DNA from: Octopus vulgaris
Lineage: Eukaryota
DNA: 64,000 nt
Direction: 5' to 3'
Assembly (NCBI GenBank): GCA_951406725.2
Contig: OX597821.1
Coordinates: 5,270,001 to 5,334,000 of the forward strand
Under the pieces are notes generated by a model. It did not search any database and was not told the origin of the DNA. It was given only the letters and a program-made list of their open reading frames with translations. Made by a program: the position numbers and the translations under genes. Below, piece by piece: positions 12,693 through 54,180 of this stretch (position 1 is the first letter of the stretch; every line of letters starts with the position of its first letter).

Positions 12693-13213
12693 ATAAAATC
12701 AAATTAAGGAACAGATATCAACACGTGATAAAATACAACCGTTTCAAGCGGCTCCATTGAATTGAACAATGCAATCTTTACGTGAATTTAAATATAGACC
12801 TATCATCAACTGCACAAATAAATAGAATTTTTATCAGTTGGATACATTAATATAATTTTTCTCAAATACTTTAACACAGCAAGAAGGTGGAAGAGATCCA
12901 TTTTGTCACTATTGTAACTAAGAATAGACTACACTGAGGTCATAGCTTGTAAATCCTTTACACGTGGGTGTGTAGTCTATTCTTAGCTACAATGGCGACA
13001 ACATGGATTTCTCCCATCTTATTGTTCTGTAAAATATTTGTAAAAACTTATGTTAATTTGTCCAACTAATTAAAATTCTATTTATATGTGCATCTGATGA
13101 TAGCTCTGCATTTAAATTGATGTAATGATTGCATTGTTCAATTAAATGGAGCCGCGCTTGAAACGGTCGTACTGGATCACTTCTTGATATCTCGTTGCTT
13201 ATTTTGATTTTAT
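12693..13213. mobile_element. Diverged ~240-bp inverted repeat (PLE-type inverted pLTRs) with HHR motif
   Basis: Arms 12693-12934 and 12970-13213 are reverse complements; right arm has GTGCAT-CTGATGA-TAGCTC...GAGCC..GAAA-CGG-TC-GTAC (13088-13172). Confidence 0.75.
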
Positions 13214-16289: not shown

Positions 16290-16460
16290 ATGGGAGGGGG
16301 GAGAATTCACGAAAAAAGAAACAAAATACGTAGATAGATGGTGTAGAAAACAAACAGATGTACTAGCATAACGCTCAAGAATTGAAGAAGTCTTTAACGT
16401 TTCGAGCCTACGCTCTTCCACAGAAAGGAACACAGAAAGAAACAAGGAGGAAAAAAATAT
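16290..16460 (-). mobile_element. PLE-type pLTR fragment with variant HHR (16392-16427); sisters at 23080-23206 and about 8200-8305
   Basis: CTTT-CTGTGGA-AGAGC-GTAG-GCTC-GAAA-CG-TT-AAAG (stems I and II pair; core A6 altered); lies between TA tracts. Confidence 0.6.
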
Positions 16461-19931: not shown

Positions 19932-20229
19932 CCTGTGTCTCTTTCTGCTTCTCCCTTTTCCACACTCTCGCAACAGAAAATATTGCTAAGTGGGTTCAAA
20001 TTTAAACCATCTCATGAAAGTTGAATAATATCTATGGTTGCAGGAATGAATAGCGTCAGAAAACTTCCTTAAAACAGTGGAATTAAATATGCGAAGAATA
20101 ATGTATGGTCCTTTTATACATGGAATTCAATCGGGCATGTAATAACATGGTTCCATTGCCTCCCGAGTAAGCAAAATATTCGTTTTATTCAATTTGACAT
20201 TTCGAACTATTATGCCACTATCTCCCCAA

Positions 20230-20490
20230 AGCTATATTAGAAAACACTTGCCCAAGGTGCCACCCAGTGGGACTGAGCCCGGAATCATGTGGTTGAGAAG
20301 CAAGCTTTTTACCACACAGCCGCAACGGACTTCTTTTAGTTTCCGTCTAGTAAATCCACTCAAAAGACTTTGGGCGGCTGTCTAAGTCTATAGTAGAAAA
20401 AACATACCCAATATGCCATGCAGTTGGACTGAACCCAATACCTTATGCCCGGAAAGCAAACTTCCTACCACACAGCTTTTCCTGCGCCTA
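20230..20490 (-). mobile_element. SINE family B head fragments (two partial)
   Basis: CACTTGCCCAAGGTGCCAC.CAGTGGGACTGA and ACCACACAGC motifs, present twice. Confidence 0.65.
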
Positions 20491-20618
20491 TTGTCAGTCG
20501 AAACAATTTTATTTGTCTTTGAGAGATACAAACGCAATCGCTATTCTCAATTTTTTATACAAAAGACATTAGACTCACCAATAAGGAGTGATTACAAAAT
20601 ACATAGTTATTAATCCAA

Positions 20619-20665
<47 letters not shown>

Positions 20666-20779
20666 CCTTGTCTGATTTTCACGTTTTATTTACAATCTTA
20701 TAATGATATATTATAAGATAATATATTATAATTGAATAAAATAAAATGAAATAGTAGAATGTTAAATATTCATTCTGAT

Positions 20780-20824
20780 TGAACTAGTACTTTCATGCAT
20801 TGAATTCTGCAATCTTCGGGTTCA
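20780..20824 (-). ncRNA. Minimal type I hammerhead ribozyme motif (left-arm copy)
   Basis: Exact reverse complement of 21354-21398. Confidence 0.7.
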
Positions 20825-21353
20825 TGTAGTAGTGTTGACAGTCATGTTCACAATTTTTGACTGTAGCAAGATGAGTGATTCTGTGCTATAAATACAGCTG
20901 GGTAGGCTCCAGAGTGCTAGGTTTTGCAAACTGTATTCTGACCAATCAGTGTGTAGTATCACTCAATTACTTAAGCTGATTGGTTGGTTGAGCTGATTGG
21001 TTTAGGCATCACGCTTTGTTGGACAGGTCAAGAGTCCCAGAGGTCCGTCAGATACCTTTGAGTAACCACCTAGCAACATGTGGTCGGAAAATATTAAAAA
21101 TAACCCAACAATTGCTGCTTCGGCCAGGGTCAAGATACAGGACTCTTGACCTGTCCAACAAAGCGTGATGCCTAAACCAATCAGCTCAACCAACCAATCA
21201 GCTTAAGTAATTGAGTGATACTACACACTGATTGGTCAGAATACAGTTTGCAAAACCTAGCACTCTGGAGCCTACCCAGCTGTATTTATAGCACAGAATC
21301 ACTCATCTTGCTACAGTCAAAAATTGTGAAGCATGACTGTCAACACTACTACA

Positions 21354-21398
21354 TGAACCCGAAGATTGCAGAATTCAATGCATGAAAGTACTAGTTCA
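21354..21398 (+). ncRNA. Minimal type I hammerhead ribozyme motif (U4C variant)
   Basis: TGAAC-CCGAAGA-TTGCA-GAATTCAA-TGCAT-GAAA-GTAC-TA-GTTCA: 5-bp stem I, stem II, palindromic AGTACT in place of stem III. Confidence 0.7.
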
Positions 21399-21560
21399 AT
21401 CAGAATGAATATTTAACATTCTACTATTTCATTTTATTTTATTCAATTATAATATATTATCTTATAATATATCATTATAAGATTGTAAATAAAACGTGAA
21501 AATCAGACAAGGTTGGAATTCTTTTTATTAATATATTCTTCTATACACAATCACACACAC

Positions 21561-21601
<41 letters not shown>

Positions 21602-22024
21602 TATATACCAGGAGGCTAAGAAACGTAAGTTTTCAGTTCTCGTTCCCAATTGACGTCGACAAAGATGGTCACCACCACCAATACCAGCAACCTTATGACC
21701 ACCACCACCGATAACAAAAGTACTATCCCCACCACTTCCAGCTTCCGCATGATTTCCATTGGCCATGCTCATAAATCAAACAGTCTACCGCACTAAATTA
21801 TTCAACCAGTTCTATGTGTGTTTAGAAGTTTCTCTTTTCTGCTTACCAGCTACTTACTTCCCTCCGTAGACTTGGCCTCATTAATTAGTGATCAACTGAA
21901 ATACAGAACTGCTGAAGACGCGTCGTGGCTTTTAAGTTTGTTTACGTTGACGAAGTTGTGTTAGGATTCTGTGTTCCGCTGTGTTTGGGTCTATGTGCTT
22001 GTATCTACATACACGTGTGTTGGG

Positions 22025-32301: not shown

Positions 32302-35262
32302 TCATAGGATTATACTCAAGGTGGCTTCGTCATTTATGCGTGCCATTCTTGCTACATTCACCCATCTTTTTTAAAAACATTCGCTAGACAAAACTTGCCT
32401 CTCTACTCTCACTTTCCTTTTCAAGTGATACTTGAAGAAGTTGATGATAGATTGACCAGAGAGGAAAGTGTTTGTCTCCAATCTTTTCAGACGCGTCCAC
32501 CAGATACATTCTTTCGCCATAGGGAAGGAGGCGTGACAATATTGACGATAGATTCAGCTGATAAACCGACTCGTTCTACACGTAACAGCAGTTGTTCGAC
32601 ATAAGCCCACAGGTCGGAAATTGTTGGACACTGCACGAGTGCGTGCAGAACAAAAGGCGACCACACCTGTTCACGGTTGTCTATGAAGCGCCGGAGATGT
32701 CGCAGTCTCAGCGCATCATCAGCCACGGCATGCCCAGCCCTCCATTTAGCGGGTGTCGACAGCAAATGGATCACCTAACCATCAGAACGTTTCCCTTCCA
32801 CAAGAAGCGGAAGAGTATACGTTCCAGTTTGGTGATGGTAGGGTCGGGACAAGGCACGACGGTCAGACGATACTCGATGACGGATGCGATGTACGCGTTC
32901 GCCACCTCCGCCCGACCTTTGAGGGATAGCTTTCTCTCAGCCCATTTCTGGGTGAGAGTAGCCACCCTAGTCGTTATCTCGCCCCAGTTCTTCTCCATTT
33001 GGAGGTCCGGACCGAACCAGACCCCGAGCAATTTAACCGGTCCGTCCGTCCAGCGTCCCACGATGGAGACGCTGTTGGACGGCATGGGCCTGCTTCTGCA
33101 GGTGTCGAGCCGCAAGCCCACTGACTTTTCCCGGTTAATTTTTGCTCCCGTTACCGCTTCGTATTCTTTTAGTGTCTCACCGACCAGCTCGATGTGCTCG
33201 TAGCTCGACACTATGACGGTGACGTCATCCGCGTATGCAGACACGCTCCTCCCGCATCCCAGCTCTCGTGGGATGCCCCTCAGCGTCGCCAGTTTCCGCA
33301 GTAGTGGCTCAAGAGTCAATACATACAGCAGCGATGAGAGGGGGCATCCCTGACGAACCGAACGCATGATGTTAAAAGGTCTGGATAGATGACCATTTAC
33401 GCGAACTACTGAGCGGATGCCGCTGTATAAGGCAGCGATCCAACCGCGGAAAACTGGACCGAAACCAGCCGCTTTAAGGACAGCCTCCAAGTAGTGATGG
33501 TCTACCCTATCGAAAGCTTTTGATTGATCCAAATTGATCAGCGCCCCACCCATGCCAGGACTCTTAACTACCCTGTCTATGATGTAGCGCATCAGATGGA
33601 GGTTGTCATGAATACTTCTACCCGGCACGGCGCATGCTTGCGCCTTGTCGATTAGTTTCTTGATGACAAGCGCCAACCTCTCGGCTAACACCTTGGCCAA
33701 AATTTTCAAATCTGCGTTGAGCAGAGTGATGGGCCTGAAATTATCTATGACGTCCCCCTTGTTTGGGTCTTTCTTAATCAGTGCCACTGCTCCTCGCTTT
33801 ACAAAAGCCGGAATACTCCCGTTTTGCTGCCAGTTGCAGTAGACAGCTGACAAGACGCCTCCAAACAAGTCTGGCATATGAAAATAAAGTTCGTAGGGCA
33901 GACCATCCAAGCCTGGTGACTTGTCTCTCGCGCATCCTGTACGCCCGCAGCTGTGATAGGCCTTTAACAAGACTCCACCTCTCTTGCTGAGAGTCGTGGC
34001 AAGGCATGCAGGTAGGCACTAAAGTCCACTCTGCGTTCTGACCCAAACAGTTGGGTGAAGTGTTGTTGAAAAGCCCCACACATCCTTTTAGGCTCGAGCA
34101 ATTCGCGCCCCTGTTCATCTATAAGAGACTTGATGGTGGCTCTGTTGCCTCGTTGCGTCTCCACCACTCGGGCCTCTTGGGCGGCTCCAACTCCTTCGTT
34201 CCTCAGAGCACGCATCCTAGCTCTGACAACGCATCCCTCGTGTTTGGCGTTGAGGTGTTGGTCGAGGGCCAATCTCGCCGCCAGCACGTTGGACGCGATG
34301 CCAGTTCTAAGTGCCTCTTCTAAAACCTTAAATAATTCTCCCTCTATTCTATTTCGGTCTAATGCTAGGGCTTTACTGTATCTGACTGATTCTGCTTTAA
34401 TTGCTTTTTTTAGGGCATACCACCATCTGTTGTTGATGATGGTACCCGTCAAAGCTCTCTTAACTAATGTGCTGATCCGGTCCCTGTAAACCTGTCGTGC
34501 TGTAAAAGACGCGTTCAGTTTCCAGTAACCAGGACCCTGCCTATGTGTCTTATCTAAGTCAAGTGTACAAGTCACAAACTTGTGGTCTGTGTAACTGACT
34601 ATATGAAATTGTGGACAACCTACACTATTTTTATCTATTGTCCTACAGAATACTCTATCTAAGTATAATCTGGACGACCCGATGCGGTTACTCCATGTCC
34701 ACATTGGCACATTCGGGTGGTCCAGTCGGTACCTGTCAGACAGTTGGAAACGTCTGAGCAGGTCTTTGAGGCATTTGCATCCCCTTCTATTGCTATCTCT
34801 GCCCACGTAGTCAAGATGCGTGTCCAGGGTGGCATTCCAATCCCCCACTAAAAGTAAAGGACGAGACGTTCCCATGAAAGACTCTAGACGTCGAAAGAAA
34901 TCTGGTCGGCCTGTTAAGGACGGAGCATAAACTGCTATCAGTCGAAAAGCACACTCATTGTTGCCATCGACATCCAAAACGACCAGCCTACCATCCGGGT
35001 CTAGGAAAATTGCTCTTACTTTGAGATCCAGACCCTTCCGGAGAAGCACCGCGGTGCCACCTCCGCCCATTCTCGGTAGACACGGAGAAAAATAAATGTT
35101 GAAATGTGTACCGAAACTGTGCTGGAGTGCCCGCAAGCTGTGGAGTCTGGTTTCACTGATGGCTATGATATTCAGATTTAGTGACTTGATGTCATTTAAC
35201 AGGTAGCCTTGGTTCCAAGGCGACCCCAAGCCACGTACATTTATACTGCCTATTCTGAGCAT
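32302..35262 (-). pseudogene. LINE ORF2: apurinic-like endonuclease + reverse transcriptase (disrupted)
   Basis: APE motifs SINVRGL, ISET, GDWN, LDRVF, TDH; RT motifs KSPGLDG, RPITLLN.D.K, DQSKAFDRV, RQGCPLS, YADD; frameshift near 33965, stop at 32771, C-terminal deletions. Confidence 0.92.
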
Positions 35263-35328
35263 GTTCCGATAAAAAATTGTGTTTTACACACGAAAAGAAA
35301 GTGCAAAAAAGGAAAGAGAGAGAAAAGG

Positions 35329-37403
35329 TTACTTGTTCGAAAGTCCTTTGTTTTTCACCTCACAGTCTTCTTCCATGAGGTTTTTGTATAGTTTCTTTGA
35401 TGAAAACTTTTGAAATCTCCCTACTGCATCAGGGTAAAGAGATTTCAGGGTGCTGTATGTGTTCTGTGTTACGTGTATTATTTTAATGTGTTGTGGTGGT
35501 GTTGTGCGTGGGTGGTTACTTGTTTTTATGTCGTTTTCAGTTATGTTGGTGTTTGACCTAATGTGTTCCATTAGGTCGTGGTTGTTTGTGTTTATGGCTG
35601 TCAACATTGTTGGGGGGTTTGATGATGGTGTGTTTGTGTTGATGTGTTTGTTTTCTGTGGATGTTTTTGTTTCGGGAGTGGTGAATCTTCCTGCTTTGTT
35701 TGTTATCTTTTCTTTTCTTTTTTTCCCCCTTTTTCTTCTTCCCCCTGTGGCTATTTGCCAATGTTCTGTGTCTTCTTCGTCTAATGACAAATCAGAAGAA
35801 GCAGAGCTTGGAAGAGGGAAAATATTGGGGTCTATTGTAGACTGTGTTGATTTTGTTGTTGGTGTTGGTTGGTAAGCGTTAGGTTGTGGTGTATGTGGTT
35901 TTGGCGGTGGGGTGTGGGTATTTTGTGTTTGAGTGATTGTAGGTATTGTTGTGTTGTTTGGGGTGTCAATTTTGTGGGGATTTGGAGTAGTAAGTGTTTC
36001 TTCATTTTCGATGAGTTGTCTTTTTGGCAGATGTCATTGGTTTGTGAGTTTGTTTATTCTGGGTTGTTGTTGGTGGAGTTGCTTCTGTTCTTGGTGTAGT
36101 TGGTGTGGTTGTTTGGTTGGTGAGGTTTGTTTTTTGTTGATTTTCTGTGATTAGTCCTGTTCGTGCAAAACGTGGTGTGGGTAGTAAAGCTGGTTTATTT
36201 GTTTTTTCCGGCTGCTGTTGTTGTTCCTGTTGTTTGCTTGCGGCAGATTTGCAATCTTTTTTTAGGTGTTGCTCACTTCCGCATATGTAGCAACATGGTC
36301 TTCTGCCATCGACGACCACATACAACTTGCGGTCTTCTGATACACATATCTGGGTGGGTATTTTCTTTATGTCCTCTTGGTTTATATGTAGTAGAAATTC
36401 TACTTTTTTCCCACCCAGTTTTTGTGCTCCGTGACCGTGGTTTCTAAAATTGTGAAATCTTCCATTTTCCCACATAAGGCCTTTACTAGCCATAGATTGT
36501 TAGCTATTTTGGGGACATTGTTTAAAGTGATCTTAGTCACTTTCTGTCCACGATAGCTTGGTGTTAGTTGAAGTTCATCTGAATGAAGAGTTAGCGTTGA
36601 GAAACGTCTTGCTAACCCTTCAGTGTGGAAGACCACTTGTATGTGTGCGAACTTGTTCCACCAGGTCACACACTCTTTGTAGTTCCAGATGGGTTTCAAG
36701 CATTTTTCTATTTTGCTTGTGTTAGCCTTCTCTGGACTTTTTGTTTTCTTATTAATTATTTTATATATAATTGTTCTTTTTTTTCATCTTCTAATATTTC
36801 TTGTGGTATGTTTATTTTTACTATACCATCTACTTCCGTTATTGAAATGTTCATGTCTTTTATTTGTTGTGCAGTAAAATATACTGTTGTCTTTTTTCTT
36901 TTATCGCCTCGGCGAAATTTGTTGTTGTTTTGTTATTGTTGTTGCTGGTGGTGATGTTGTTGTTGGCTGCAGTTGGTAAAATCGGTGTATTTGGTTTGAT
37001 TGTGCAAGTAGGAAGGGGTGGAAAATTACTTGCATAGTTTATCCCTGTATTCAAGCAGCTTTTGTCAATTTGTTTGGTGGTCACAGTCTTTTGTTTATTC
37101 CCTTCAGTTCTTGTTGTTGGAGTAAAACAGGTCTGAACAGAATTGTTGTTGTTGTTATTGTTGTTTTTGTTGTTGGTGGTGGTGTCAGTGGCAGAAGAGA
37201 CAGCCGTGGCAGCAGATGGCGCAAATGTTATTATTCTTGTTGTCATTGTTATTGTTGTTGTTGGTGGTAGTTGAGGTAGTGGATGAGGTGGCGGTGGTGG
37301 TGGTGGTGGAGGCGGTGGTGGTAGCAGTAGTAGTCTTGTTGTTGTTGTTAGTGGTGGTGGTGACAGTGCTGTTATCGCAAGTGGTTGCAGCGTTCACTGC
37401 CAT
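35329..37403 (-). pseudogene. LINE ORF1 (gag-like, zinc knuckle), frameshifted
   Basis: Successive ORF pieces 37403-37185, 37246-36860, 36699-36400, 36493-36002 (CYICGSEQHLKKDC) and 35790-35329; T/N-rich low-complexity N-terminus and linker. Confidence 0.8.
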
Positions 37404-43479: not shown

Positions 43480-44581
43480 GCATGCATGTACATATGATGG
43501 ATTTCGTCACCGGTGTTTTACTAAACTCCCACGAGTATCGGGGCTATAATTTCAGACCTTGGTCCAAGATTCAGTGCAGTGGTAGTGTAATGATCTCGAA
43601 ACCACATGGTGTCCAAGGGAACCGCTTAACCACACAGCCATGTCTGCACTAAATAGTTATATATGAAACATTCCTTTAGTTATATTCTAATCATCGAACT
43701 CAATAATGAAAAAGTCGGTTATTTAACTAAACACCTTGAAATTCTTGATTAATTTCAATATTAATTAAATCCCAATGTATTTCATTAAAAATCTGGTCAC
43801 GAAAGGGTTAACTAACAAAAAGAAAATTCGACAAATATCTCTAAAATTAGTTAATTTATTCTTTATAAATGCCACACACAGCAGGTGACAGTTGAGGTTA
43901 ATTAATTTCGTGGCCATTGGTAACTGTCACCGTATGATCAAATGCAGTTGTCATTAGGCGGGTAAATGAATTAGCTCCTACTTTTTATCGAACCTTTGCG
44001 AGAGACTTGTATGAATGAGCCTGAATATTTACGCACTACGCGATACCTAAAATATTCAATTCCTGTCTACTATACACATTACAGTAGAGTAAGCAAGGCG
44101 ACTGTTAGTGTCGCTAGATTATCGAATAGACTAACAGACGGAATAATGTTTCGGCATTCGTTCCGGCGCTGTGAGTGCAAATACTGAAATACTCAACGTT
44201 GATTCTCCTCTTTTCCGCCAGGTGACATGAAGTAGCAGTCAAAAGCGAAGTTCGTTTCTTGCTTTTCTCACGCTTGCGGTTTTTTTCGAGAAGGAAATCG
44301 GTGTTGGGTTTGATCCCGACATTGGTAAAGGTTGTCTTCATATTAGAATATCGAAGACAGTGCTCCAGGAACACCTTCAGAAGTTGAGAAACCTTAATAT
44401 CACCACACAGAACAGCAGAGCTAAAAACTCGACGAGTAGAGTTAGCACCGTGGTTTTCCCTTTAAATTACTGTCATTTAACGTGGCAAATTTAATTAATT
44501 CTTTCGAGAAAGCCAAAGCGGCGTTTATTTATATGCGTACGTATAGATGTATGTATGCATGAATGTGTGCATCAATGTAAG

Positions 44582-44648
<67 letters not shown>

Positions 44649-44699
44649 AATACTAAATTTCTAAATCTCTCATAGAGACATGTACGGTGGCGGGGCGAT

Positions 44700-44870
44700 A
44701 GAATGGTTGTATACTGTCAATCTAACACGAATTTGACAGTAGGGGGGTACACTACCGCTGTTTAGCCCTAGGAAGCATCGACGTCGAGGTGTCGATTCTT
44801 CCTAGGGTTAAACAGCGGTGGTGTAACCCCCTACTCTCACGTTCACGTTAGATTGACAGTATACAACCAT

Positions 44871-44873
<3 letters not shown>
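44700..44873. repeat. 174-bp palindromic (MITE-like) element
   Basis: AGAATGGTTGTATACTGTCAATCTAAC...CCTAGGAAG.ATCGAC pairs with GTCGAT.CTTCCTAGG...GTTAGATTGACAGTATACAACCATTCT; short loop. Confidence 0.85.
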
Positions 44874-44930
<57 letters not shown>

Positions 44931-45036
44931 TATATAAAAGTATATATATATATATGCATATACATATATATAAAAGTATATATATATGTATGCATATACA
45001 TACATATATACATGCATATATGTGAGCATGTGAATG

Positions 45037-45095
<59 letters not shown>

Positions 45096-45140
45096 CTATA
45101 TATATACTTTATTTAAAATCAGCAGAAAATTCAACAAAAC

Positions 45141-45178
45141 CTGTTACTCTGAGTTTCACGTTCCCGTTCGTCGGACAG
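45141..45178 (-). ncRNA. Minimal type I hammerhead ribozyme motif (U4C variant)
   Basis: CTGT-CCGACGA-ACG-GGAA-CGT-GAAA-CTC-A-GAG-TA-ACAG: stem I, GNRA-capped stem II, near-palindromic stem III. Confidence 0.7.
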
Positions 45179-45279: not shown

Positions 45280-45505
45280 TACAAAATGTGACCGCGTGTG
45301 TACCGTTCGCGATTTTTTTCCTCCGCCTCCCCTTCTTTGGATCTTTCCTTCTCCTATGTTTCCAACGAAGATCTCCACTCGAAACGTTAAACCCTCCTTC
45401 TTTCCTTCTTTCCTTCTTTCCTGAGCGTCCAATAATACTATATTTGTTCCACGTCCTCGCGTTGTTGCTTTTCTCTTTGTGTTTTCATGTTTGGATTAAC
45501 TTTAT
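45280..45505 (+). mobile_element. PLE-type pLTR fragment with decayed HHR (45358-45392)
   Basis: GTTT-CCAACGA-AGATCTCCACTC-GAAA-CG-TT-AAAC; sits between TA tracts. Confidence 0.5.
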
Positions 45506-51378: not shown

Positions 51379-51411
<33 letters not shown>

Positions 51412-51454
51412 CATTATTTACATTTGACGGATATTTGTCATCTTGTTTGTTGTT

Positions 51455-51500
51455 AACGCAACGTTTCGGCTAATATACACTCCAGCCTTCATCAGGTGTC
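51455..51500 (-). ncRNA. Minimal type I hammerhead ribozyme motif (canonical core)
   Basis: GACAC-CTGATGA-AGGCTG-GAGTGTATA-TTAGCC-GAAA-CG-TT-GCGTT; the plus-strand sister 51651-51697 has GAAA changed to GTAA. Confidence 0.75.
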
Positions 51501-51512
51501 TTGGACATATAA

Positions 51513-51575
51513 GCGTAGTGGTTCAGAGCGCGGGCTACTAACTCCAAGATTCCGAGTTCGATTCCTGGCAGTGAC
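51513..51575 (+). promoter_or_regulatory. tRNA-derived Pol III A/B-box head (not a functional tRNA)
   Basis: GCGTAGTGGTTCAGAGCG (A-box/D-arm), GGG-CTACTAA-CTC anticodon-like arm, GAGTTCGATTCC (B-box); 5' acceptor strand missing. Confidence 0.7.
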
Positions 51576-52355
51576 GTGAATAATAATAATAATAATAATA
51601 ACATCGAAAAATAACTTAGGAATAAGAACGCAGCTTCGAAATTTCCCCAAGACACCCTGATGAAGGCTGGAGGGTATATCCGCCGTAATGTTGTGTAAAC
51701 AACAAACAAAATGAGGACAACTATCCGTCAAATGTAAATAATGTAAATAATGTACATAATTCCTCATCTCTTAAATATAGGACTGCATCACTCTTGTCGA
51801 TTTGCCGGAAAGAATATATCTGGTTTGCATAAGGGTTTTGCAATCACGTTGGCAGAATCAGTTGTAATTCTTCTTTTCTATTAATTTATCTTGAAGAGTT
51901 TCTGTTATTTCTGCCATGTATACGACAGAGCTTATCAGGGCGTCGACAGTTACAACTAGTAGTGGGATTTTGATGATGTTTACGAGTAATAATATTTATA
52001 TTTATATAGTATGATAATTTAATTGGTATGTGTTAGAAATCTTCCTGTACTTGTGATTTATTGGGAAATGCTTATCTAAAACTGAGAGGAATTTCGTAAC
52101 TACAGGTGTATTCATAGGCTTATTTTTATGATACATATTTTTAGTTGAAAAATTGTAATATATCTTATCTTTGAAGCCGCTCTTTGCTACAGTATTGCAG
52201 TATTGCTTTAATGGCGGGGTGTCTTAAAGAATATTTCATTAGAAGAGAGATTTTATATCATATTATCAATGTATGTACACAGATATACACATATACACAC
52301 GTAGACACCTACACACACATATGTAGACACACACGCATACACGCACACACATATG

Positions 52356-52410: not shown

Positions 52411-53100
52411 TTTAAGAGGAGGTCGGAAGATGAATGATACGAAAAATTTTATTAATCATTAGAGTTATTTCAATCCACCCAGCACCGATCCTTCACGGGT
52501 GTATTTCTGCAAAAGTACATTAATATGCATGTATGCATCTTGTGAGTCTTTCAGAAATTTTGTTAGTTATGTTTTCATTCGTGCACACAATAGACAGGGA
52601 TTCCTAAGACCAGAGCCAGCATCTCCTGGAAACGACATTATATATTTTTTGTGCCTTAATATGGACCGTTGTATAATACTTAATTTCATCTTCCTTGAGA
52701 CGCCACACAAAATCGACCAAAGATGTTAAATTTACATTTTCGATTTTCTTGAAACTTTCAACTTGGTTGAGATAACGATTCTTGAATGAATTAGCCGTTG
52801 CCCCCACTGTAAAGTTCTTTCCTTGTGTGTATGGTACGTTTATACAAATGATGTATACTTAAGTAGAAGTTCATCAATAGGCGTTTTGATTTTTGTCTAC
52901 AAAACCATATATCTTTTCCAGGGCATGCTGACTCTGCTTCGAGGAATCCCTGTCTATTCTGTGGGCCAAAGAGAAAGCCACTTACAAAATTTCTGAAAGA
53001 CTCTCAAGATGCTTGCATGCATATAAATGCACTTTCTCACAATACAGCGGAAATGAAATTGAGTAACCATTAACCTAATTAATAATCATAATATCCTTTA
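52410..53100 (-). pseudogene. PLE 3' end: GIY-YIG endonuclease remnant with inverted partial copy
   Basis: Minus 52860-52520 translates VYII...VGATANSFKNRY.N..SF...TSL..FVW.LK...Y....CWL...ESLSI...NKISE...C.H; arms about 52500-52632 and 52913-53046 are inverted; (TA)n on the left. Confidence 0.75.
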
Positions 53101-53812: not shown

Positions 53813-53817
<5 letters not shown>

Positions 53818-54180
53818 CCAAGAAAAAAGCAATAAGAATGGATTAGTAGTCTAGTACAATTGTTTCATACCAAGAACAATTTTATTTGAAGCTGCAAATA
53901 TTGCAGCAGATACAAATGTCCAGTATTCATCAGCTAAATCAGCTGATGAATACTGGACATTTGTATTTGCTACAATACTTGCAGCTTTAAATAAAATTGT
54001 TCTTAGTATGAAACAATTGTACTAGACTACTAATCCATTCTTGTTGCTTTTTTCTTGGTTATAATCACCCCACATTATTTTATGGTTAATACCATAAACA
54101 ATTCTGGTGCATCTAAGTTAAGAACCATATTCATTTGAATTCATTGGAATTCACTTGAATCTTAATTATTTTTGCTTTAT
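53813..54180. mobile_element. Hairpin of two back-to-back HHR-bearing arms (53813-53935 and 53941-54063) with right-arm extension
   Basis: Minus arm: TTTAG-CTGATGA-ATACT...GGTAT-GAAA-CAATTG-TA-CTAGA; plus arm: CTGATGA-ATACT...AGTAT-GAAA-CAATTG-TA; TA repeats at both ends. Confidence 0.85.

Follow-up and report, generated by a model that had tools for sequence, protein, structure and literature searches.

Insertions of Penelope-like elements (PLEs) are described as having, at the 5' end, a copy that is inverted and 5'-truncated and forms inverted repeats, a tail of 30-40 bp that is often found at one end only, and a bias towards (TA)n targets (PMC8557442). The inverted pseudo-LTR (pLTR) is also described in PMC3846280, with an optional tail on one copy and with head-to-head as the commonest arrangement; TATA and Inr motifs within the pLTR and possible bidirectional promoters are also reported there. 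A pseudo-LTR promoter normally serves the tandem copy that follows it, according to PMC6765202, and Penelope of D. virilis is described as having a TATA-less internal promoter. Minimal hammerheads of metazoan PLEs are reported as opposite-strand pairs 100-700 bp apart that retain the G10.1-C11.1 pair and are predicted to work as dimers (PMC4209133). Purified PLE protein is reported to cleave and extend both strands of AT-rich DNA, with RT starting at two tail-delimiting sites (PMC11167929). Structure, motifs and the bidirectional-promoter idea are already in print for PLEs.

The element considered here lies in a window (the whole stretch of DNA that was analysed, 64 kb) that is microsatellite-rich, about 35% GC and apparently animal sequence. 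It is most likely a young, non-coding head-to-head PLE insertion, in which two 5'-truncated copies of a 3' end would have been copied from nicks on both strands of (TA)n by the element's RT-endonuclease and joined at their truncated 5' ends. Like the inverted pseudo-LTR insertions described for EN+ PLEs (PMC8557442, PMC3846280), it has an inverted 5'-truncated copy beside a longer copy, 3' ends facing outward, a candidate tail at one end, a microsatellite target, and both a hammerhead and a TATA-like word in the repeat. Unlike them, both copies are too short for any ORF; three NF-Y-type boxes per repeat were not found described for a pLTR in literature listings. Non-LTR retrozymes, as presented in the preprint of Li et al. 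(2026), are likewise non-coding, have a type I hammerhead and are proposed to derive from PLE pseudo-LTRs, but they are head-to-tail tandems, whereas the present copies form a head-to-head pair. The inverted-repeat type of DIRS element was considered and rejected, no spacer region being complementary to the outer ends (best local score 6-8).

Palindrome, flanks and Penelope-like architecture

The two arms (374 and 375 nt, with a 102-nt spacer; Table 1) are identical at 374 of 374 aligned bases, with no mismatches and one gap, which bears out the preliminary description of a near-perfect palindrome of about 850 bp with 375-bp arms and one indel. That indel is an extra C at 21331, missing at left position 20847 and located outside any homopolymer. 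One difference in 375 (95% interval for divergence 0.007-1.5%) indicates that the arms are young or have been homogenised. The outer 110 nt of the arm is 84% AT, and a small AT-rich hairpin (21446-21483, and its mirror) is found inside each arm between the hammerhead-like motif and AATAAA.

Table 1. Features of the head-to-head element and its immediate flanks (positions within the window).
Feature	Position	Strand	Remarks
(TA)n microsatellite	20622..20664		putative target, left half; final A common to left arm end
Left arm	20664..21037	-	putative inverted, shorter 5'-truncated copy of element 3' end (pseudo-LTR), without tail; role assigned after the Fig. 2 text of PMC8557442
AATAAA, left arm	20685..20690	-	outward; weak in AT-rich DNA
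Type I minimal hammerhead-like motif, left copy	20780..20824	-	core at 20819
TATA-like word, left arm	20887..20894		TATAAATA on +, TATTTATA read outward
Three RRCCAATSRG boxes, left arm	20940..21002	20940 +, 20985 -, 21002 -	consensus match
Spacer	21038..21139	+	putative extra 5' part of longer copy
Hairpin	21127..21152	+	loop holds truncation point 21140 of inverted copy; z -2.09, 8/200 shuffles as good
Right arm	21140..21514	+	putative 3' end (pseudo-LTR) of longer direct copy
Three RRCCAATSRG boxes, right arm	21175..21237	21175 +, 21192 +, 21237 -	consensus match
TATA-like word TATTTATA, right arm	21283..21290	+
Type I minimal hammerhead-like motif, right copy	21354..21398	+	starts 63 nt after TATA word
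AATAAA, right arm	21488..21493	+	21 nt before arm end
One-sided extension	21515..21562	+	at most 48 nt; candidate for a PLE tail
(AT)n microsatellite	21563..21598		putative target, right half

Extra bases are present only at the right end, where up to 48 nt precede (AT)n, and the left arm adjoins (TA)n directly. This asymmetry suggests a parse into a longer direct copy (21038-21514 plus the extension) joined 5'-to-5' with a shorter inverted copy, i.e. two unequal copies of 477 nt plus tail and 374 nt with a common outer end. Within the last 24 nt of the extension, 19 are A or C, and this part may belong in part to the host microsatellite. The extension is absent from the preliminary description. 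Once the tail is counted in, (TA)n is present on both sides of the element. No target duplication of 2-20 nt was found at the arm ends under three choices of boundary; in EN+ PLEs, which insert into microsatellite or AT-rich DNA, such duplications often cannot be discerned.

An inverted 5'-truncated copy, a one-sided candidate tail, a (TA)n target and a PLE-type minimal hammerhead together match the architecture of published PLE insertions (PMC8557442, PMC3846280, PMC4209133), and the PLE origin and recent insertion proposed earlier are therefore supported. Also in favour of PLE identity is a second head-to-head hammerhead pair facing outward in the window, at 51396-51758. Against it, the candidate tail of up to 48 nt exceeds the 30-40 nt described, no parent element and no protein relative of the spacer frame were found, and the hammerhead escapes Rfam. 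The pair at 51396-51758 is older (96 matches, 12 mismatches), with outward canonical CUGAUGA hammerheads, the core being intact on the minus strand at 51495 and degenerate on the plus strand, and another repeat occupies its 142-nt spacer.

The spacer contains a plus-strand frame (21037-21165) that is open for 43 codons (43 aa). By eye, its first half resembles the second-His region of the CCHH motif in PLE GIY-YIG endonucleases (Fig. S2 of PMC8557442), and both its orientation and its position are as expected for such a region ahead of a pseudo-LTR; it has neither a Glu after that His nor an LN motif. Protein searches with this frame gave no match at E<=10 among longer proteins, no candidates among proteins of similar length and no match in the Atlas. 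Two matches in a representative library, with scores due to internal repeats, and PDB matches to leucine-rich repeats, likewise inflated by repeats, were rejected. Hydra endonucleases lack CCHH, and the spacer frames show none of the Hydra C-terminal CxxC/CxH motifs. The CCHH-like spacer thus disagrees, as a clue to clade, with the U-U of the hammerhead discussed below. Given these results, the donor may itself be a non-autonomous derivative with internal damage.

An ORF with telomerase-like RT and GIY-YIG endonuclease would not fit into so short a copy. Arm and spacer had been proposed as a probe for the parent element; within the 64-kb window that probe has yielded neither a second copy of arm or spacer nor a parent ORF. 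The possibly active family put forward in the preliminary description gains no support from this. Among 402 complexity-filtered stop-to-stop frames of at least 50 aa, a Pfam scan of the longest 300 detected no PLE ORF and only an L1-like element. This nearly intact non-LTR retrotransposon (32771-36800, minus strand) has its endonuclease (PF03372, E 3e-13) and RT (PF00078, E 5e-32) in two overlapping frames, with ORF1-like frames upstream. Five short words from the window had no match to the element's family in the supplement of Craig et al. (2021).

Hammerhead-like and promoter-type motifs

The right hammerhead-like motif is comprised of a 5-bp stem I, the core CCGAAGA, a U-U, a 4-bp helix II, GAA and a palindromic AGUACU helix III, with a predicted cleavage site after 21393. 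In models, the minimum-energy fold of the motif is the hammerhead scaffold; the stability of the 45-mer is no better than that of shuffles (z -0.52). Among 5000 dinucleotide shuffles of the arm none gave an equally good motif and five gave any such motif, and a relaxed scan of the window found five motifs (two of them in these arms) against a mean of 0.1 per shuffled window over 30 block shuffles. The motif is thus beyond chance. No Rfam family was matched at gathering level in the whole window, and the 20 matches at E<=10 within 20500-21700 include no hammerhead (19 are on AT microsatellites). Set against the active core (C3 U4 G5 A6 N7 G8 A9 ... G12 A13 A14, A15.1-U16.1, H17), only position 4 fails, being C rather than U. 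The type I minimal hammerhead of a PLE pseudo-LTR is accordingly present as motif and fold, with a variant core and a negative Rfam result.

A C4 core is found in none of the 31 families in File S2 of PMC8557442, so that the hammerhead cannot be taken as proven intact. U4C is reported to lower activity in vitro yet to sustain a viroid in vivo (PMC3088659). The intact minimal ribozyme claimed initially is possible and is not borne out, given the C4 core, the absence of any Rfam match and a fold no better than shuffles. No C4 core in PLE hammerheads was found in print, and it may already be described among PLE hammerhead variants. C4 is also present in two other, unrelated motifs of the window (45174 minus, 45362 plus), and U4 in two (16423 minus, 51495 minus). 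The two C4 motifs (45139-45178, minus, and 45358-45392, plus) are about 190 bp apart on opposite strands, and stems I and III of the former are closely like those of Hydra-clade motifs. The minimal hammerhead-like motif at 16385-16435 (minus, core CTGTGGA) is located between (TA)n runs.

Decay was initially considered for the U-U at the base of helix II and was dropped. The same U-U is found in 14 of 25 Hydra-clade families, and is thus a known family trait, and in 0 of 6 Chlamys or PLE-X families (File S2, PMC8557442), although a table that takes in only Hydra and Chlamys does not establish it as Hydra-specific. The element has no RT, and its U-U agrees with the Hydra clade. Further likenesses to Hydra-clade PLEs (Craig et al. 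2021, File S2) are the position of the two U residues, one after the first core box and one before GAA, a short stem I, a hammerhead near the 3' end and the (TA)n target, and one family is listed with an inverted 5'-truncated copy; differences are the C4, the loop-less palindromic helix III and the lack of CxxC/CxH in the spacer frame. Compared with the minimal type I metazoan PLE hammerheads of Cervera and de la Pena (2014; PMC4209133), the short helix I, palindromic helix III and opposite-strand pairing at 100-700 bp are shared, whereas the G10.1-C11.1 pair is absent, helix II has 4 bp rather than the 7-8 bp described, and position 4 is C. The hammerhead pattern had no matches in bacterial and archaeal genomes, and a plasmid search gave no match. 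One match of a 21-mer to a Treponema MAG, confined to 27/29 bases and near the chance expectation of 0.27 for a 21-mer, was rejected.

In the outward direction, the motifs of each arm are two CCAATCAG boxes, a third box reversed, TATTTATA, the hammerhead-like motif and AATAAA. The CCAATCAG words of the right arm are at 21177 and 21194, with the third, in opposite orientation, at 21228; this reversed CCAAT box, found once per arm, is unmentioned in the preliminary description. RRCCAATSRG, which we take to be the NF-Y consensus, matches six times in the 64-kb window, each time inside this element (three perfect CCAAT boxes per arm), and none of 5000 dinucleotide shuffles of the arm held three CCAATCAG words. 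On these two results, the promoter signature can be taken as genuine. The literature listings contained no description of a cluster of NF-Y boxes in a pseudo-LTR.

The remaining words are less telling. The perfect match to TATAWAWR points inward (20887 +, 21290 -), the outward word being its reverse complement, and AATAAA occurs 152 times in the window, with two further copies in each arm reading inward; both words thus weigh little alone. The outward order described earlier therefore stands in its tandem boxes, TATA-like word, hammerhead-like motif and AATAAA, and is weakened by a poor AATAAA and a perfect TATA that faces inward. From spacing alone, an outward transcription start is predicted near 21315. 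The TATA-like word also differs from the TATA-less promoter described for Penelope of D. virilis, which counts against PLE identity. The "two divergent mini transcription units" are present as outward motif sets in both arms; they are best read as a pseudo-LTR promoter doubled by inversion, a by-product of that event and not a designed bidirectional locus.

Origin of the inversion

The head-to-head insertion could have arisen if nicks were made by the enzyme in each strand of the (TA)n target, which is symmetric, and one cDNA was begun at a tail-including site and the other at a tail-less site. Both cDNAs would have stopped early, the short copy presumably stalling in the loop of the hairpin at the truncation point (Table 1), and the two 5' ends may then have been joined through the imperfect 8-nt repeat that crosses the junction (21031-21046). 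The inversion could alternatively be due to self-priming of the same PLE, whereby one cDNA (or an antisense template) would have formed a fold-back at the junction and served as its own template, the hairpin afterwards being resolved into the target. This course of events is a realistic possibility, if a clearly lesser one, and its weight overlaps that of priming on both strands because PLE identity is common to the two. Self-priming from palindromes at inverted junctions is favoured by Arkhipova (2013; PMC3846280) and leads one to expect near-identical arms; in addition, the hairpin straddles the truncation point and the 8-nt repeat spans the junction. However, at the exact junction the ends have no complementarity beyond the arm itself, and a full fold-back copy should double the tail, yet the tail is at one end only. 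The one-sided tail is explained less well by fold-back than by dual priming, and from one copy alone the two cannot be told apart.

Origins outside PLEs carry far less weight. The long near-identical inverted arms, short spacer and left end on TA would suit a non-autonomous DNA transposon (MITE or Foldback) in which terminal inverted repeats of 375 bp carry promoter motifs, and the terminal 4 nt of the element (AACC/GGTT) are found again in the palindrome at 53816-54060. Such an origin is nevertheless improbable, as no duplication of 2-20 nt flanks the arms, and TIR elements are not known to have a one-sided tail or to carry a PLE-type hammerhead in both arms. Identity of 374/375 is also what a chimeric fold-back formed in amplification, library preparation or assembly would give, but the mirror ends at the element boundary, the host flanks differ, the tail is at one end and other palindromes of the window have clearly diverged arms (matches/mismatches 204/37, 117/6, 174/34 and 124/22). 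The latter show that not all are artefacts and that such structures are common there, making an artefact at this locus very improbable. Also very improbable is a host-domesticated bidirectional NF-Y/TATA promoter with identity kept by selection or gene conversion: six perfect CCAAT boxes do lie between two divergent TATA-like words, but Pfam detected no host gene nearby (a scan that could overlook short exons), both arms stop abruptly at microsatellites, and the identity of the arms is not confined to the motifs but extends through the AT-rich outer part.

Other repeats surround the element. The palindrome at 53816-54060 (5-nt spacer, 117 matches and 6 mismatches, left end on (TA)n, AC-rich right extension) is a much better candidate for a cruciform than the element studied. 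At least five more long palindromes, whose arms have diverged and whose spacers measure 8-251 nt, are located at 12693-13213, 44527-45035, 52500-53046, 58397-58832 and 62430-62897; the one near 44700-44870 has a GC-rich hairpin core. A decayed RT fragment at 19962-20237 on the plus strand, 430 bp upstream of the palindrome, matches by eye the Hydra-clade RT in the supplement of PMC8557442 (FIQFDI, W-x3-V-x2-WF spacing); database searches with it were negative or weak. It is interrupted by a SINE-like short repeat (copies at 20225-20321 and 20388-20476, 11 BLAST matches across the window). An older PLE may end in the (TA)n that received the young insertion.

Transcription and significance

Pseudo-LTR promoters in this head-to-head arrangement would point outward into host DNA. 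An outward RNA would hold neither promoter nor ORF, and in terms of transposition the insertion would therefore be a dead end, with weak outward transcription as its only likely activity. Long dsRNA from two promoters, as suggested in the preliminary description, is not to be expected, since the two outward RNAs would be same-sense and identical, not complementary, and would not form long duplexes with each other. Read-through of the whole element would be required, for which a fold of about -682 kcal/mol is predicted. The cruciform suggested alongside is unlikely with a 102-bp spacer: for inverted Alu repeats in yeast, PMC8053094 reports breakage down by about 80% with a 9-bp spacer and fragility raised by divergent transcription. 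Single-strand hairpins of the palindrome are possible.

More speculatively, the inversion might create a working divergent NF-Y/TATA promoter in one step, with two identical 200-nt RNAs pairing through the palindromic helix III into a double hammerhead; this would supply the partner ribozyme that PLE hammerheads need, with the C4 core (in three unrelated motifs of the window) adopted across the host's PLEs. The scheme as a whole is improbable. In modelled folds the double hammerhead in trans has the lowest energy of the dimers only when the 45-mer stands alone, and other pairings win with 81 or 200 nt of context; this fold, weak and lost in longer context, was set aside. If the scheme were true, bidirectional promoters would be supplied ready-made by head-to-head insertions, as from a factory.

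The element illustrates, in clean and young form, a type of insertion product already known for PLEs, and its arm and spacer could serve as a probe for a recently mobile family. If the arms of many copies were compared, dual-strand priming could be told apart from fold-back at this step of PLE integration, and a recurrent C4 hammerhead core would widen the known natural variants. Should the CCAAT/TATA cluster prove active, outward or bidirectional promoters would be seeded by PLE ends in the manner of LTRs.
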